From contig NC_085844.1 of the NCBI RefSeq assembly GCF_035594765.1, positions 176,654,107-176,718,106 on the forward strand: a stretch of 64,000 nucleotides of DNA. Reading direction: 5' to 3'. Within the stretch, counting starts at the first letter, position 1, and each line of letters begins with the position of its first letter. This stretch comes from Anolis carolinensis. Lineage: Eukaryota. The position numbers and the translations under genes are program-made. Shown piece by piece: positions 49,422 to 62,035 of this stretch. The notes beneath the pieces were generated by a model that did not search any database, had not been told where the DNA came from, and worked only from the letters and a program-made list of their open reading frames with translations.

Positions 49422-52400
49422 TCAGTTACTAACCTGTTTACCTTGCAGAACATTAAAAATATCGTCCAGTGACTTGTGAACACACTGGACAAATTCTTGC
49501 ACATTCCTCGCTGGATAGCCAGAAACATTACACCCAATCCAATCATTGTGTATTCCGTATCCTACACCAAAACCATCAGGGACCACTGGCCCAAATCCAC
49601 CCATGGAGACTGCAGGGCTGCTCAGAGTACTTGTGGAGAGAATGTTGTGATTAATCTGTGAATAGGCTTGGTCCTGATAAAATTCTGGTAAGGGGGTTCC
49701 TCGAGATTCCGCCACACATCGCAAGCCATACAAGTGCCGATCAAAGCCCTGGCCTGCCAACACAAAATGCAATAGTGAATAGCACTGCAAAACCAAACTC
49801 AGGCATGTTAAATTATTTTGAAGCAAATTAGCTTAACAATTTTAAACAAACATTAACATTGTTATCCATGAATTTAGGCTGCATATGCAGAAAAAAACCA
49901 GGCAACTCCTGATGGTGTTAGTTTAGAGTCTCTACTGTTTATTTGAAACTATAAACCTTCTTTTCCTCTACAAGAAGGATCAAATTCACAGATAAGAGGT
50001 ACTTATATAAAGGTTGTCTCATAAAATCTTAGGAAGCTCTCAATGTTCACAAGAGTGTACATTGACATATTTACTGCCATATTTCTAAAAGGAGAAGCAG
50101 GAATGAAGGATGAAAAGCCCTATTTAAAGTTGTCACAAAATTTGAGTGCAGTCATCCCTTTATATCACAGGCCCAGCATGCACAGATTCAACCAACCAAA
50201 GCTCAAAAATATTTTTGAAAAAATCCCAAAACAAACCTTGATTTTGTATGCATTGAGCACTACACTAATGTGTAGTCATACTCTGCTGTAGCCTTCCATC
50301 ATTTCACAGGTCCCCTGGCACTCATTTGAGCTGTTCGGTACTTTATAAAAGGAATGCCATTTTACAATGCCATTGTATATAATTGGGAGCCCTGCACCTA
50401 GAAATCAGTATCCACATGAGGTCCTAGAACCAAATCCCAGCAGATACCTAGAGCCCAGTATATTAATATTCCAGATTTCTAATGAATTTTTTCCTCTGCA
50501 ATGAAAGAAAAAGGCATTGTGTATAATGAGCTTGTAAGAAATGTCGTACTCCAGTGTGACTGGCTTCTCTGAAGGATCTATTTTGACAGCAATCTTTTTC
50601 AAACATTTAGGAAGTTGAAGATAAACTGAATAGGATTTAAAGATACTACAGAGAAGTTGAGAAAAGTTTTCATTCAAGTCATGTACTGGATATGTGAGAT
50701 TATTCAATATCTAGTGCAAATATCCTAAATGTTATCCTTAAAAGGTTAGGAGGGCTGAGCATACTTGCATTAGTAAAGAGGTGGGCTTGCTTGGTATTAC
50801 CATGCAAATTGCAGAAGAAAAACAGAACAGCTTCACATTCACACTTACCCATAGCAGCTTCTTTTGTGAGCTGGTTGTGATACTTAGAGCACTCTGCAAT
50901 CATCTGTTGAAGCTCTGCTACGCTGTGCTTGGATGACTTTCTGACAATGGCCTCTGAACATGCCTTTGTGTGAATGGAGGCAGGACGAATGGTTTCAGTG
51001 CGACCGTGTTTGAAAGCTGCAGTGCTGCACGATTCATAGGTGGCAACAGTTTGCCCATATTGCTGCAGAAAAGCCATCTGGAAGGCGAGCTGAGCAATAG
51101 CATCAGGACTGACTTTATGCTTCTTTAACATCTCCTTGCCTCCTCTTTCAAACTGATGAGCCTCCAGAGTCAATGTTTTCACAGTAGCATCAAATTTTTG
51201 TTTGGCTTGGGTAATTCCTTCTTTTAAGGCATCATTCAATTTAAAGTTCAGTTTCTGTACAGATGAGGCAGAATCAACAGCAGCAGGCTGAGACTGAGGG
51301 GTAATTGCAGGTGTCTGAGTGCTATCTTTAAACACTTCATTTTGGAATCTAAGAACAGCAACACCATCTCCCCAAGAGTGTTCAAAGTGAATTGCTGCAG
51401 TGCCGTCTTTGGCTAAAATGAGGTTGAATGACTTGTCATACCACCTATTGATGCCATCACCATGCAACATGGTATGGGACAAGTGGTTCAAGCCGTTAAT
51501 TGGAAAATCATCAAGGCACAGACAAAATATTGCTGAATCTACTTTTCTTAAGGCTTCTGCATTCCCATTTTCCAGTAGCTCCTGTCTCAACCTTGCCCAT
51601 ATGTCCCGATTTTCAGTAGTCAGACACGCAAGAGGGAATGCTGGAACTGAGCTACTGTCAGAAAGGATGAATTGTAGATGTGCTTGAATTTCTGAAGGCT
51701 TCAGTATATTCCCATCTCTATCTATCACATCAAATACATAAAAGTTTCCATTTCTAATCACCAATAAGTGCCTCTCATTTTCATCTGTAAATAGTTCATC
51801 CTTGTTAGACTTGGGCAGTCGAGCAGAATTGAAAAGCCTGAAGTACTGTGACATGTCTAGTGGGTAGGCATTCACCATGTAGGCACAAAACCATGACAGA
51901 GAAGGAGGCACAAAACGAACGAACTTTTTAAAAGCTTGAGTGTCACTTTTGGCTGGGTTCAGGTGAAAAACCTCTGGTTCTAAAATGTTAGTCCTGAGAG
52001 TCTTCAAGAATCGCAAAGCAGAAACAGTCATGTTAGTTGCCCTTGTGAGCTGATTGTTATAATCCACTTTGGAGTCAGCATTGAAAACCATGAAAGGATT
52101 GAAGTTCAAAACAACTGATTCACGTGCCCTTAGGTACATGTCAAACCAGGGACCTAACGTTGAGAGGTGGTAAAAGAAATAAAGATAGAGACCAAAAGGA
52201 GAATACATGTTATAAATGTGTCACAATCCTGAAAGAGCCATGTGATTATTGTTGGCTATAAGATGCCACATAAGATCAATTTGCAAGAGAGAAATCCAAT
52301 AAAGTTATTCTGTGGACAGAAGTGCTTCCACCTGAGAAATAAGGAGGAAGCAAACCTCCTTTCCGCCTCCCTCCTCATACACCCTCAAAATCTGGAGGAG

Positions 52401-54407: not shown

Positions 54408-57400
54408 ACACACACACACCCTTCTGCAGCCAGGCTCTCAAATAAACCATTAGCACCAATGGATGGTTTTAAAAGGCTCACTTCAGTGTAGGAGAGGCAG
54501 CTTTCTGAGTGTTAGTATAGTAGTGTGGATGGCTACCCATTCTTCCACAAATGCAACTGTTCTGCCAAAAAAAAACATGTTAAAACTACAGTTTTTAAAG
54601 CCTCAACTGTCATCAATGTGGAATTTAAATGCCAGATTTCTTTAGGATGAAGGAGTGGAAATCCTTTATCTCCTGTCCCCAAACAGACATCAAATCAGAA
54701 AGAAGCTGTAAAAATAGATAGAGGCTTCCAGTGAGATGGCTTATGAGTTTGTGGCCCCTTAGTTAAGGTGTATCTATAATGTAAAATTAATGCAGTCTGA
54801 CACAACTTTAACAGCTATGCTGTGGAATAATGGGAATTGTCATTTTACAAGGTATTTAGTTTTCTCTGCCAGAGTTCTGGTACTTCACCAAACTACAAAT
54901 TCTAGGATTCTACAGCACTGAGACATGACAGTTAAAGTGCTACCAAACTGCAGTGATTCTACAGTATAGATATACCACAAGTCAAATCCGATTAGCAACA
55001 TTTCTATCATACCCCAGGTGAAGTTCGTTCTTGCAAAGTGCCTAAATTTCTTTAATACAGGACAGTAGAAACAAATTGTCTGCATGTAATGAGTGTATAT
55101 GCTCTACTATCTTTTCTCTTAGGTTATGTAAACAAACACACACAGCTTATCTTTAGAACAAACATGAAATTTAGTGACTACAGCTTTAATTAGTGACATG
55201 CAGGAGTGACTGGACTATTGAGCATCCAATTTTCATGTCACCCAACATTTCCTTAAAACATAGGGGGTTTGAGCCCAATTTAAATAAACTTAGAACCAAT
55301 CTGCTGAAAACCGTGGGACATGTTCAAGAAGTCTTCTCTTAGTTCAGATCGAAGCCAATTCTTAGTTCAGTAGAGTCTCACTTATCCAACATAAACGGGC
55401 CAGCAGAACCTTGGATAAGCAAATATGTTGGATAATAAGGAGAGATTAAGAAAAAGCCTATTAAACATCAAAATAGGTTATGATTTTACAAATTAAGCAC
55501 CAAAACATCATGTCATACAACAAATTTGACAGAAGTTCATTACACATTAATGCTGTGTAGTAATTACTGTATTTACGAATTTAGCACTAAAATATCACAA
55601 TGCATCAAAAATATTGACTACAAAAATGCGTTGGATAATCCAGAATGTTGGATAAGTGAGACTCTACTGTAGTTATGTCAATTCACACAAGATATATAAG
55701 AGTGAATAAACCAGCCTACATTCTTTTGGCAGCAATAAGAGTATAATCTGACTTTAAACTAGATCACAGTGATTTCTAACTCAGCAATTTGGAGAACAGA
55801 AATCAAGAAAATAAGTTTCACAATGAGTTTCCTACCTGAAATATAACTAGTATGTTTGTTTTGCTTGTCCTGTGAAATCAACTGCTCATGTAATTCTCGG
55901 CCAATTCCTTTCTCAAATTTGGCAGCAAGTTCTTCAGTTTTCCTTTATATAAAAAAGAGAAAAAGAAATTTAGTTAAGCTGCTGTGCCTCTTCCTGAGAG
56001 GTAAAGTATCTTGATAAATACCAAATGACAACTAATCCATAGAAATCCTGTGTGATTTTCCCTTCTCCACCCTAAATCTTCTCAAATAAGTGATATGTGT
56101 AATTAGGCAAGAATATTTGGGATGCAGCACTAGAGACCTTAGCTTTCTGTGCTAGAGCACAGAAGTTGTTGTCAACATTGTGAATTAGATCCTTGGTTTC
56201 CTCTTTGTTCTTACCTGAATTGGTCATCATCTAGAAGAGGTCTTTGTGCATTCAAGTATCTTCTAATTGTATCTTCAAGTTTTGGAATTGGCAAACTAAT
56301 AAGGGAGAGAGAATTAAAACAATCTAAAAATGATGTTAAGCATTCTACTAAGCACATAAGAAAACACTTGCTCATTCAAGATTAGACTACTGAGCAATTT
56401 ATAGCTGAAATATAGGTTTAAAAGGGATTCTAAGATGATTATTATTATTTTGTTCATTTACATACTGCCATTATCCTGATAATGGGACTCAAGGCTGTTC
56501 ACAACATATTAAAAACAAAGCAACTTTAAAAATGTATAAACATGAGAATAAAGTATAAATGTAAGATTTAAAAGTTTGTAAACTAAATAATAACAAATTA
56601 TTAAAATGTGTTAAAACTCCATGAAACCCCTTAAAAATCTTCAAAACAGCACCAGACACCATCAACAGCCCAACATTTATCAATTTGTAAAGGCCTGGTG
56701 GGACAGAAATGCTCAAGGACCTCAGCATCCACAACTCTACCATGCTTCTGTAGGCAGAGTAAAAGTAAATGAGGAGGATAGTCCTTCCACTACATTCATT
56801 GCCATTACAAGTAATCGAAGGGAAAGTGTGTATTTCCCCCATGTCATGAGACCCATGAACCAAACTGGATTCAAAAGGTATCCTTATCTATCCATACCAA
56901 ACCCTTCTAAGCCATCCTCTCTTCATTTGTCCTGACACAATAGAAATATATGCAGAATTTCGACAATGAGTCTGATCTCCTCTTTCAAAGTCAGAGCCAT
57001 AGAGCTGTAAATTACGTAAGTTATAGGACGTTTCCATCAATTCAAGTCACAGTTCATGATGGACAATAGATCTTATTAGCTAAAGAGCAAACTTATCCTC
57101 TGAGCCTCAGTTCTTTTGTAGACAAAACAATATCATTCATACATAAGGAGGGGCAATTTGGGGGACAGATTTTGAAGATGAATACCAAAACTTTAGTAGC
57201 ATGTTTGGCTGGTCTCAATATGGAACAGGAGTATCCTATGCTGCAATATTTGTTGACACTCCCATGCAAGCTCATGCTGGGAAAAAGATAGGTTATAAAC
57301 TAAATAAATAAATATGTAAACTACATCAGGTTTTTGCCATCTTTGCTATCAGTTTTCTTGCTTGGAGATGGTTCATCTTGAAAGAAATACTGGAAAAAAT

Positions 57401-59718
57401 ATATTGAGAATAGGTCAAAGAAAGGTATATTTATACTGTCTGTTTTATGGGTATTTAGGAAAAATCCTCCTCGGGTAGCAGTGCCAGGAGGGAAAACAGA
57501 CAGCCATAGTGACTTAGGTTACATCTACATTGAAGAATTAATGCTGTTTGACACCACTTTAACTGTCATGAATCAAAGCCATATAATCCTGGGAGTTGTA
57601 GTTTGGTGAGACACCAACACTAATTGCCAGAGAAAGTTAAAGGCCTTGTAAAACTACAACTCCTTGGATTCCATAGCATTGAGCCTTGGGAGCTTAAGAG
57701 ATGCCAAACTGCATTAATTCTACTGTGTAAATGCACCCTAAGAAAGCAGAAAGGCTGTAGAATAGGTTGCTTGGAGCCAACAGATTTTGCTTGCCTTCCC
57801 TTGTCACTGTTGAATAAATCTGAAGAAAGGAAAATCACTTGTGTAGTGAACCAAAAGAATTATGGTGCCAGTGTTTAACTATAATCTTCACAGTATGATC
57901 CTAAGTATGATTATTTATTAAGAATTAAGCATCAATTAACAACATGTAAGGTAAAAAATCCAAAATAATTTCACTTCCTCTGGTCTTCTGCTTTTGGGAC
58001 TCATTTTTAAGGAGGTAAAAGGGCACATATTTAATTAATGTAAATGTATATGCGATAGCAATCACAGAAATCATGTCCTCCTCTTAGCACTAACCTTTCA
58101 CCCACATACAATACATGGTTGAAGGCTTTCACTAATAGCTGCAACTCAGATTGTTCTCTCACTCTCATACTAAACTCCTAATACATTTCTCATCGTGGTA
58201 CTGTATATTTTGAAAGAGGTGTTTCCTTTTTCACTGTCTGCTCTAGGAAACATAATATCCACAAAACACTGATGCAGTACTGGCCCTGATTGTTTCTTGT
58301 CTGGAATTACCCTGTCTTCTGGGTGTTGTTCTTTATTTACTGATTTTCAAGAGAAGCCATTGAAATCCACAAGCATCTGGGCAATTTCAACAGAAAGGAG
58401 GAAACCACGAAAATGAACAAAATCTGGCTACCAGTATTAAAAAAAACTTTAAAATCAGGACAGTAAATAAAAGAACAACACTCAGAAAAACAGGAGAATT
58501 TAAGACATGAAACTAGCAGGGCCAACTAACACCTCCCAACAAAGGATTCCTCCCAGGCAGGAAGCAGCCAGGCTTTGAAAATGCAAGGCTATTCAATGCT
58601 AATCAAGCTGGTCAGTTGCACCATTCACACTTGTCTCCAACAGACAGGTTATTTGTCCCACCCTGGACCTTACACAAATATATAAACCCCACTTGCCTAG
58701 TTTTCCAACAGACCCCACAACCTCTGAGGATGCCTGCCATAGATGTGGGTGAAACGTAAGGAGGGAATGTTTCTGGAACATGGCCATACAGTCTGGAAAA
58801 CTCACAGCAACCCACTGTTCCTGGTTTCAAGGTGTTATTTCCTGTCTAATTGTGCAGTTCTTTGAGGGTAGTCATTACACTCCAGAAACTTTGTTTTTGT
58901 GGCTCCACAAACTATGTTTAATTGGTTGAGACTCTATTCATTGAAAAACTATAGCAAAATGTGCTGCAGGATGTCCCGCAAAAATGAAGTTGTTTCAGTT
59001 TAATAAACTTTTCCCACGTTTTAATGAGAGAAACAATTAGAAAATGACAGTTATAACCCAGGAACAAAAATCATGTTATATAGTGATGTATATATATACT
59101 GTATGTATATGTGTGTGTGTGTGTCACTTTAATACATGACAACATTATAATGAAAAAAAGAGTCACACTTCTCTCCCATAGTATATTAATTCCCACTTTG
59201 TTGTTACACTTACCGCAGTGCCAAGTTGGAGGCTGCAATTAATTAAAATTACGGCAGTGCAACACTGTACATTTAGCACGAGAAACAATCCATTCCTACT
59301 AATGAATGAGTGTGCTTCTTGGGGTACATCCACACTGTGGAATGAATGAGGTTTGACACCGCTTGGAACTGCCACGGCTCAGGGCAATGGAATCCATAGG
59401 AGCTGTACTTTGACAAGGTCTTCTGACTTCTCCGCCAAGGAGGGCTGGTGACTCAGGACAGCTGCATTGATTCTGAGTCGTGGCAGTCCCAAGAGGTGTG
59501 AACCCCCGGTGTCGATGCTTCCTCCAAGGGAGCCCGGCGTGACCTTACCGGGGCAGGCTCTTTTGGTAATGCAAGGTGGGGACGAGGCTGCGGTGCAAGT
59601 GCTGGGGAAAGGATGTCTCCTGGCCGTAGTGCCTCCGCCGGGGCCCCGAGAGGAGAGGCGGGAGGCGGGCGGCGGGGGCTCCGCGGAAGGGCGAGGAGGA
59701 CAGGCCCAGCAGCGCCAT
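49422..59718 (-). CDS. CPT2: Carnitine O-palmitoyltransferase 2, mitochondrial, 664 aa; exons (minus strand) 59718-59549, 56295-56215, 55942-55836, 52153-50849, 49753-49422
   Basis: Exons of 170+81+107+1305+332 = 1995 nt, all GT-AG. Arg/Ser/Leu-rich presequence [19 protein letters not shown]..., followed by the motifs [17 protein letters not shown], catalytic [34 protein letters not shown] and LSTSTL. Confidence 0.97.
54373..54418. repeat. (CT)n-(CA)n compound microsatellite
   Basis: Seen directly. Confidence 0.9.
54765..54976. mobile_element. PIF/Harbinger-like MITE, same family
   Basis: aggtgtatctataatgtaaaattaatgcag...acagtatagatatacc. Confidence 0.65.
55368..55669. mobile_element. Tc1/mariner-pogo MITE, same family
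   Basis: TIR CAGTAGAGTCTCACTTATCCAAC at both ends, body similar to 35963-36301. Confidence 0.9.
57516..57738. mobile_element. PIF/Harbinger-like MITE, same family
   Basis: aggttacatctacattgaagaattaatgc...gtgtaaatgcaccct, with TTA/TAA flanks. Confidence 0.7.
58281..58814 (+). mobile_element. Penelope-like 3' fragment with an inverted 5' segment (CPT2 intron 1)
   Basis: 58350-58814 is highly similar to 37885-38350. 58281-58342 is the reverse complement of about 37995-38055. Confidence 0.85.
58721..58761 (+). ncRNA. Minimal (Penelope-type) hammerhead ribozyme motif, catalytic core intact
   Basis: CCT-CTGAGGA-T-GCCTGC(CATAGAT)GTGGGT-GAAA-CG-TA-AGG: CUGANGA and GAAA core, 6-bp stem II, palindromic ACGT stem III, GUA cleavage triplet, CCT/AGG stem I. 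Lies in the terminal region of a Penelope copy. Confidence 0.75.
58815..59085. mobile_element. Non-autonomous DNA transposon, possibly Chapaev-like
   Basis: Imperfect inverted arms gttcctggtttcaaggtgttatttcc / aaaatgacagttataacccaggaac, ending in AGTG. The family assignment is tentative. Confidence 0.45.
59321..59520. mobile_element. PIF/Harbinger-like MITE abutting the CPT2 exon 1 donor
   Basis: ggggtacatccacactgtggaatgaatgaggtttgacacc... The right arm is degraded and GC-rich. Confidence 0.6.
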
Positions 59719-60300
59719 GACAGGAGGAGCAGGAGAGCAAGAGGAGGCCGCCCTTGGGAGGAGTTTGCTCTGAGAGGAGGATGGACCAGGAAGAGGAGGC
59801 CTCTGTGCGGCGCTTCAGAGCGAACCTGCAAGGCGTGGGCAGACTTCGGCCCTTCAGGCGTTTTGGACTTCAACTCCCAGAATTCCTAACAACCTCAGGC
59901 CTTAAGCGGCTGAGGGGGAAATGGAAAAGGCCTGAGGTTGTTAGGAATTCTGGGAGTTGAAGTCCAAAACACCTGAAGGGCCGAAGTCCGCTTATGCCTG
60001 GTTGGCCACAGAAAAAGGCCTGCAATGTCCATGGAAATAAATGACAGCTCTATTGTCCAATCATTACCGACCAATCTCAGCGCGTGTCGGGCAAAAGGGA
60101 TTCGAGTGACCAATCAGCACAGCCCTTCCATAGCCCGCCCCCTCGACACAATGGACGGGACTTCTATTCTGCCTGTAGAGGACGCAGTTCTCCCTCAAAT
60201 ATAAAACCAGCCGAAGACTGGAAAACTATATAACTCACAATCCATCAGGCCTCGACGCAGGCGCATAAATTTGCTGTTGTTTTTACTGTGTGGCGGGATC
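59500..60300 (-). promoter_or_regulatory. CPT2 CpG island and promoter
   Basis: GC/CpG-rich over exon 1. CCAAT boxes at 60057, 60071 and 60110, and GC box CCCGCCCC at 60134-60141. Confidence 0.7.
59830..60000. mobile_element. Palindromic hAT-type MITE directly upstream of the CPT2 ATG
   Basis: 61-bp inverted arms (59842-59902 and 59928-59988) with one mismatch. Related to the copies at 27948-28082 and 35345-35475. Confidence 0.85.
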
Positions 60301-60829
60301 TAAGACGAAGAAGAATAGGAAGAGGAGGGATGAGTACTGTGGAGTGAAAGGAAGGTGCATTGTGGCCTCATCTACACTGACCATTTAATGCAAGTCCTTT
60401 CCACAGAGCTATATAATCCAGAATATCCCACAATACCTGCTTTGAATTGGGTTATTTGAGTCCACACTGCCATATGTTCCAGTTCAAAGCAGAAAAGGTG
60501 GGATTTTATTCAGCTGTGTGGAAGGGGCCCCAGTTTCAAATTGGTTCTGCAAATGATTCCATAGGATATCTGGAACCGGTTTGTGGCCCAGATGGTGTTT
60601 ACACAAACCCTTAAAACACATTAAGGGTTTTATTTTGCATGCTTTTGTGGGATTTTGTGGCTTCAAACTGCATAAAATGGTCAGTATAGCTGGGGCCAAG
60701 TATGGGACCTCCACTGTATTGTCTCTCGCAGTCAATTGCTGAGAAAGAAGAATGAAAATGTGTGCCTTTCTGTGTGCATTTGTGTTTTTGGTTCCCTTCT
60801 CTGTAAGTTTCCCAGACTGTTAGCTGGGG

Positions 60830-61660
60830 TCCACAGTTGACTGTAGAGACCTACTTTTAATTCGCATGTTTTTTCGTGGGGAGGACACCGATTTCCAGAT
60901 GGAAGACAGTGCTATCAAGAGTTGGGTTGACGAGCCTTCCTCCTGACACATTTCTCCCATTCGCCCACTATTCATACCTCCTCAAAATCTGTAACACTGT
61001 TGGTAACAGCTAACTTCCAGTTAAAAGCTCAAAATGCCAGAACTTCCCAGTTCTCCATGTCTATGCTACATTTTTAAAGTTTAACTTTAAGCCCATCTTT
61101 AAATCTGGGGAGACAGTGATCAGCCATTCGGACAATGTGGTCAGTCCAGCTAAGTTGATGCCAGAGAATTATCGCTTTAGGTCTGATGGTCTTTGCTTCT
61201 TCCAGAACACTGGTCTTTGTCCACCCATCTTTCCGAGAGATTTGCAGGATTTTTCGGATACAACACTAATGGAGGCATTCCAGAAGTTGGGTGTGATGTC
61301 TGTAGATGGTCCATGTTTCACAAGCGTAAAACAGGGATGGGAGAACAATAGCTTTATGAACAAGCATCTTAGTATCCCTATGAATGTCCTGATCCTCAAA
61401 CACTCTCTGCTTTACTCGAAACAATGTTGAGCTCACAGAGCTCAGACAGTGTTGTATTTCAGCGTCAATGTCTGAGGTGGCTACCAAGGTAGCGGAAATG
61501 GTCACAATTTTCTAGTGTTACACCATTAAGCTTTATTTCTGACATTGCAGAGGGGTTGGTTGATGTCTGATGGTACAGCACTTTGGTTTTTTCAATGTTC
61601 TGTGAGGCCAGGCTTTTCACATGCTTCTGCAAAACGTGTTTAAGGTGGCTTTGAATGGAC
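60830..61660 (-). mobile_element. RTE-clade LINE fragment
   Basis: ORF-track fragments FRYLGSHL and RVFEDQDIHRDTKMLVHKAIVLPSLFYACETWT. Same family as 37008-39072. Confidence 0.85.
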
Positions 61661-61839
61661 ACAGACTATATTATCATCTCTAACAGAAGTTGTTATGTCC
61701 TTTTGGCTTTCAATTTGCTAAGATTAAAGAGCTTTCCATGTTTCCAATATGTGATTTCCACACTGGTGGGAAGCTTCCCATCAACAAGGTGTGGAATTAT
61801 AACTATGAAGATGGAAAATAAGGATGGGATAATAATGCA

Positions 61840-62035
61840 AAGGCCTTCAAATTGCCTGTTGACTTATCCTGACCCTATACATTTCAGAGGCTTTTCTTAT
61901 GCAATGAATCCTCAGGTGATTTTACCAGTTCCTTCCTCTGAAATACAGTCTACAGTACCTCATATTGGTTGGTGGTCTCCCATCCAAGTATTGACTGGAG
62001 GTGATCCTGCATATTACCTAAGATCAGATACTATG
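61840..62035 (-). mobile_element. 5S rRNA-derived SINE (SINE3-type) with an RTE/BovB-like tail
   Basis: The reverse complement tctgatctt...tacttggatgggagaccacc...tactgtagact resembles the 3' two-thirds of 5S rRNA (box C TGGATGGGAG), followed by a non-rRNA body. Related body fragments lie at about 4390-4505 and 29035-29122. Confidence 0.65.

Follow-up and report, generated by a model that had tools for sequence, protein, structure and literature searches.

A minimal hammerhead motif antisense in CPT2 intron 1 of Anolis carolinensis, carried by a truncated Penelope-like element of the Poseidon_Ac family

The hammerhead motif at 58721..58761 (plus strand) belongs to a 5′-truncated Penelope-like element (PLE) copy of the Poseidon_Ac (PAc) family, inserted antisense in the first intron of a gene that we take to be CPT2; we put at roughly 0.85 the probability that it is an inert, passively decaying relic. 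Positions are those of the window, i.e., the whole 64-kb stretch of DNA analyzed. The ribozyme family is already known and has been assayed (Frangieh et al. 2024, PMC11167929).

The motif, its family and its host element

The letters and pairing of the 41-base motif were confirmed as first described (Table 1). A relaxed minimal-hammerhead descriptor gave exactly one match in the 64 kb, both strands included, and 200 dinucleotide-shuffled windows gave 0.025 matches per window, or 0 when a stem II of at least 6 pairs plus the palindrome was demanded. Searching Rfam over 56000-62000 at E≤10 returned 20 matches with no hammerhead family among them, only miRNA-type hairpins and weak snoRNA matches, all under gathering scores; its models may miss a motif without stem III. 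The folding stability of the 41-mer compared with shuffles was not unusual either (z +0.6). Since neither Rfam nor stability singles it out, the evidence for the motif is its core and its homology, not folding energy. The motif carries the CUGANGA, GAAA and UH elements, the unpaired base and the palindrome of the class, and it sits in the pLTR of a Penelope-like element: it is a real minimal type I PLE hammerhead. Chance origin was ruled out by the shuffle controls and by the genome-wide pattern count with its reversed control given below. The hammerhead search proposed in the preliminary description succeeded with the descriptor over 64 kb and was silent with Rfam, and the core, stems and palindrome listed there were upheld by the single match.

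Cervera and de la Pena 2014 (PMC4209133) describe the metazoan PLE class of minimal hammerheads, most of them single relics in truncated elements, in which A9 and 10.1 are separated by an unpaired base. The window motif shares with this class the type I arrangement, the extra base, a long stem II, a loopless palindromic helix III and the usual setting of a lone motif in a truncated copy. The G10.1-C11.1 pair, highly conserved but not absolute in the class according to that source, is G-U here, and helix I has 3 bp; the missing G10.1-C11.1 is a decay change and not the mark of another family. Small dimeric PLE hammerheads with a very short palindromic stem III and a dimer model were reported by Lunse et al. 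2016 (as cited in the review PMC6765202), but, unlike these, the window copy has no tandem partner. Non-LTR retrozymes, as described in bioRxiv 10.64898/2026.07.22.740005, are likewise non-coding DNA with a PLE-derived type I hammerhead; they consist of tandem units with at least two motifs, whereas the window holds one motif in a truncated PLE. Retrozyme identity was rejected on the one descriptor match in 64 kb and the lack of a tandem array at the site.

Compared with the PAc ribozyme, 39 of the 41 bases are identical, the exceptions being T for C at 58750 and A for C at 58758. We assign the family because the RNA given in the Methods of PMC11167929 has the same 41-mer as two full-length tandem copies, L141 and L142, which we reached in the same genome through a protein search. 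As in the published account of PAc, the ORF starts at the head of stem II, the distance from start codon to cut is 26 nt, the motif sits within the pLTR, and full-length tandem copies are present in the Anolis carolinensis genome. The window copy differs from PAc in its U11.1, A17, in-frame stop and older pLTR subfamily, and in being 5′-truncated, solitary and ended at about +95. Homology to the family across the ORF end, the pLTR and the ORF start marks it as a derived copy.

The element comprises an endonuclease C-terminal remnant, the pLTR and the first 85-95 nt of the next ORF. It matches the dispersed copies L013 and L016 at 86% over ~475 nt and the full-length L142 at 76%; since its pLTR resembles dispersed copies at 86% and full-length ones at only 76-77%, it likely belongs to an older subfamily. 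Within the remnant, which takes up the first 110 nt, 27 of 33 residues agree with 773-805 of the L142 ORF (846 aa). The Pfam GIY-YIG model matched neither the full-length ORFs nor the remnant, so that position and PMC11167929 are the grounds for the label of endonuclease end. The same ORF start, its ATG inside the hammerhead, opens 836- and 846-aa ORFs in L141-L144, among which Pfam found RVT_1 only in L141 and L142. An AT run resembling the putative promoter octamer occupies the corresponding position in four other copies. At only ~475 nt, with no tandem pLTR-ORF-pLTR and open RT-EN frame, the window copy is not autonomous; its homology ends at +85 to +95 of the ORF, short of the +172 to which the minimal insertion template extends in vitro according to PMC11167929. 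Two other copies occur in the window, both more than 20 kb from the motif and with broken cores, and the 64 kb holds no same-strand core-intact partner. In this trio the antisense copy is intact and the other two plus-strand copies are broken, three copies being too few for an orientation bias.

The motif lies on the strand opposite to the gene within the 3.25-kb first intron. Carnitine acyltransferase exons (PF00755) were placed on the minus strand at 49425-52217 by a Pfam scan, and CZIB-family exons (PF05907) on the plus strand, from ~36770 to a stop at ~47026, by a direct scan. The CZIB stop is 11.7 kb upstream of the motif, CZIB and CPT2 face each other head-on, and the interval contains 29 AATAAA/ATTAAA hexamers, a weak signal in AT-rich DNA. 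CPT2 and CZIB are presumed names, and the small exons were placed by presumed peptide motifs of these proteins. Element homology and exon placement bear out the earlier claim of a Penelope copy antisense in CPT2 intron 1. The gene order over 1-64000 is LRP8-like (+), MAGOH (+; PF02792 match), CZIB (+), CPT2 (−) and SLC1A7-like (+, from ~62500), where LRP8-like and SLC1A7-like are names that we presume from the translations. A long hairpin repeat (59831-59999; 73-nt arms, 93% complementary) of a MITE-like family with several window copies and sub-threshold miRNA matches lies upstream of CPT2, ~110 bp from its start codon. A strong donor-like GTAAGT at 59205-59220 of the minus strand, 340 nt into intron 1, is possibly an alternative 5′ splice site, or chance.

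Table 1. Features of the motif, its element and their surroundings (window positions unless another sequence is named)
Feature	Position	Strand	Basis or remark
Stem I, 5′ strand	58721-23	+	Sequence and descriptor scan
Core CUGANGA, C3-A9	58724-58730	+	CUGAGGA in the window copy
Unpaired U between A9 and 10.1	U58731	+	
Stem-loop II	58732..58750	+	58732-37 with 58745-50; 6 pairs, 3 G-U; 7-nt loop
GAAA	58751-54	+	
Loopless palindrome ACGU	58754-57	+	15.2-16.2, without loop 3
GUA triplet (GAAA-to-triplet block)	58751..58758	+	Predicted cut after A58758
Stem I, 3′ strand	58759-61	+	Helix I of 3 bp
5′-truncated Penelope-like copy (Poseidon/PAc family, likely older subfamily)	58350..58824	+	~475 nt homology
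Inverted pLTR-start fragment, same element	58280..58342	−	Matches 58461-58524; at 5′ junction
ORF C-terminus remnant (endonuclease end, by position)	58350..58460	+	Homology to L142 ORF
TATA-like octamer in pLTR, putative promoter element	58679..58686	+	Sequence
Element ORF start overlapping the ribozyme	58730..58759	+	Codon 10 (58757-59) is a TAA stop
Longer truncated copy, same family, sense in CZIB intron	37165..38353	+	Core broken, G12 to A
Third copy	35660..35951	+	2 core bases deleted, palindrome broken
CPT2 coding exon 1	59549..59718	−	Translation and GT donor
CPT2 exon 2	56215..56295	−	Translation
Inverted motif pairs, examples	G000:C1 1195059-1195152, 2003527-2003615, 2185695-2185787, 2252202-2252295		

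Intact cores are ordinary in the family

A 35-letter core-intact pattern, counted genome-wide as exact matches, occurred 21,469 times, and the reversed pattern used as control 0 times. In an unselected sample (864 kb chosen regardless of the motif; 80 alignments, 43 of them spanning the motif and 37 partial ones set aside), the core was kept in 20 of 42 copies and the core with all stems in 15 of 42, the window copy being excluded. The preliminary description was therefore right that the core is intact and overstated what this means, as an intact core is the ordinary state and the ribozyme had been published (PMC11167929). Its expectation that the family conserves the core and the stem II pairing was confirmed by alignment of the copies.

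Two of the three stem II G-U pairs are family-wide in that alignment, the closing pair being the exception: position 11.1 is C in 31/42 copies and T in 10/42, and U11.1 occurs in 5,616 of the 21,469 core-intact matches (26%) as well as in L144, a full-length ORF copy. At 58758 all 42 other copies have C. The GUA triplet has 64 genome matches and the non-cleavable GUG occurs at 47 further places (p=0.13). The change to GUA at 58758 makes codon 10 of the ORF a stop, which the earlier account had missed, as it had the parent's need of protein for cleavage (PMC11167929). The sequence suggests that G10.1-U11.1 arose by CpG loss, and both the closing pair and GUA look like decay; both had been singled out before and are indeed present, as private or decay changes rather than family features. 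Among the papers searched, none dealt with a G10.1-U11.1 closing pair. Divergence of the window copy from the family majority is 8% over 125 nt, similar to that of its peers.

Core conservation among dispersed copies was not significant (non-CpG core, 16/420 changed; elsewhere, 141/2347; p=0.085), although the trend, 3.8% versus 6.0% changed, points toward some core constraint and against the inert reading. The essential G12 was changed in 11/42 copies, as often as the non-core C11.1 (11/42). Genome-wide, U11.1 (5,616) is 1.9 times as frequent as the core-killing A12 (2,991), an excess that could reflect some core constraint; the U change is also synonymous. At the second, palindromic CpG, where the trinucleotide context is the same on both strands, the pair-breaking synonymous change (4,730) outnumbers the wobble-keeping, protein-altering one (3,749). 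Because the synonymous change is the commoner in both cases, the reading frame of the source elements is a likelier cause of the asymmetry than ribozyme function. In L143 the 836-aa ORF is intact, and the palindrome of the upstream hammerhead is broken by a synonymous change.

Cleavage, folding and plus-strand RNA

According to PMC11167929, the PAc ribozyme did not cleave without PAc protein, C3G and G8C each abolished cleavage and the double mutant restored it partly, cleavage was dispensable for insertion in vitro, and no RNA-seq reads started or stopped at the cut site. In the reading that we favor, that of an inert relic, the CPT2 pre-mRNA would carry only the reverse complement of the motif, which the motif could not cut. 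Because PLE promoters are reported in the pLTR (review PMC6765202; for Drosophila Penelope, an internal TATA-less promoter, PMC2377424), the element's own pLTR would account for plus-strand RNA more simply than read-through from CZIB. RNA started there would contain only one motif, its stem II weakened and no neighbour in cis, and probably not the full protein-binding region; the proposal for minimal PLE hammerheads is that helix III can close only with a second copy, via the palindrome. As a result, folding and cleavage would be rare. Four sequencing runs over 55500-59050 were available as assembled contigs, which are blind to strand and ends and in which other copies swamp the depth of the element; intron coverage in them was even and DNA-like in two runs and patchy in two. 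One contig, ending at the CPT2 exon 2 donor and followed by 9 unaligned letters, hints weakly at partly spliced CPT2 RNA.

Folding was predicted with models that leave out tertiary contacts and protein. The core of full-length copies is predicted to pair both with bases around the cut site and with a hairpin upstream, and a hammerhead-like fold would cost 6.7 kcal/mol in the 41-mer and 10-16 with flanks, which fits the reported protein requirement. The parent hammerheads (L141:3939-3979 and L142:3747-3787) have two predicted off-state pairings that hide the core, one involving the bases at the cut site and the other a stretch of five bases upstream. These pairings are a candidate reason for the protein dependence of PAc; the inhibitory core pairing may already appear in the RNA-folding panel of PMC11167929, and triplet-core pairing has precedent (PMC1636495).

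These predictions bear on whether the copy is chemically competent, in the sense that C17A frees the off-state, that pLTR-started RNA cleaves slowly when dimerised in trans with other PAc transcripts, and that CPT2 is unaffected. In the window 41-mer, C17A is predicted to abolish the core-sequestering CUGA/UCAG pairing, with a fold cost of 1.7 versus 6.7 kcal/mol, and the isolated 41-mer may cleave, which counts against the inert reading. GUA is a natural cleavable triplet, co-transcriptionally the fastest of four in the ELVd hammerhead (PMC1636495). With flanks the cost is 4.7-8.8 kcal/mol, under most copies (5/60 and 12/60 at or below it, in a set enriched for copies picked by likeness or GUA). 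We nevertheless consider competence unlikely, as in native flanks the 3′ strand of stem II is predicted to pair with bases 58712-18 instead. The predicted probability of stem II with 25 or 60 flanking nt is ≤0.01, compared with 0.6-0.95 in full-length copies. The stem II hairpin itself is predicted at −4.4 kcal/mol with the G-U closing pair versus −5.8 with G-C. With a shortened flank, a register-shifted stem I would hide C3-U4; the palindrome duplex is predicted at only −1.7 kcal/mol and the dimer topology at 8.7 kcal/mol above the minimum. The assayed minimal PLE hammerheads are dead as monomers and weak as dimers, the schistosome motif being inactive as a monomer and low in activity as a dimer (PMC4209133).

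An improbable extension, which we rate below competence of this one copy, is that the lock on PAc is the pairing between cleavage site and core, and that the rare GUA copies, including that of the window, are unlocked, cleave without protein and act as dispersed cut sites in antisense or intronic RNA of the host. The least probable proposal is that the host retains the motif to cut antisense RNA made by CZIB read-through or across CPT2. The read-through source suggested in the preliminary description fits in orientation, the motif being on the CZIB strand, and the two plus-strand copies nearer CZIB are broken while this one is intact (n=3), but transcripts would need to extend 11.7 kb, head-on through CPT2 and past the hexamers described above; moreover, the copy is as diverged as its peers, and the core survives in about half of all copies regardless. 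We thus retain the reading of an inert, passively decaying relic.

Related arrays and significance

Tandem PAc pLTR/ORF-start units with a full hammerhead in each occur elsewhere in the genome, as 4 x 173 bp (L146:821-1380; G000:C1, near 2.664 Mb) and 3 x 220 bp (L147:1396-1876; G000:C1, near 1.063 Mb). By their sequence these two arrays fall under the tandem definition of non-LTR retrozymes; they may dimerise in cis and could be better test substrates than the window copy. Two further tandem arrays, L145:1002-1206 (3 x 82 bp) and L148:994-1371 (3 x ~168 bp), have motifs with stem I lost or a GUG triplet, and the 82-bp unit deletes the ORF bases from the cut site onward. Many core-intact motifs on G000:C1 form back-to-back inverted pairs 20-25 bp apart, the inverted-junction form of PLE insertions (examples in Table 1).

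The motif itself is of little consequence: the ribozyme has been published and assayed, and this is one of its decayed copies. By contrast, the >21,000 core-intact copies are a natural mutant library for the question of the protein dependence of PAc, and the same library can be used to ask whether hosts purge sense-oriented intronic copies. Protein-free cleavage by GUA copies, if it occurs, would account for the protein requirement described in 2024 and would provide a few dozen candidate cut sites in host RNAs.
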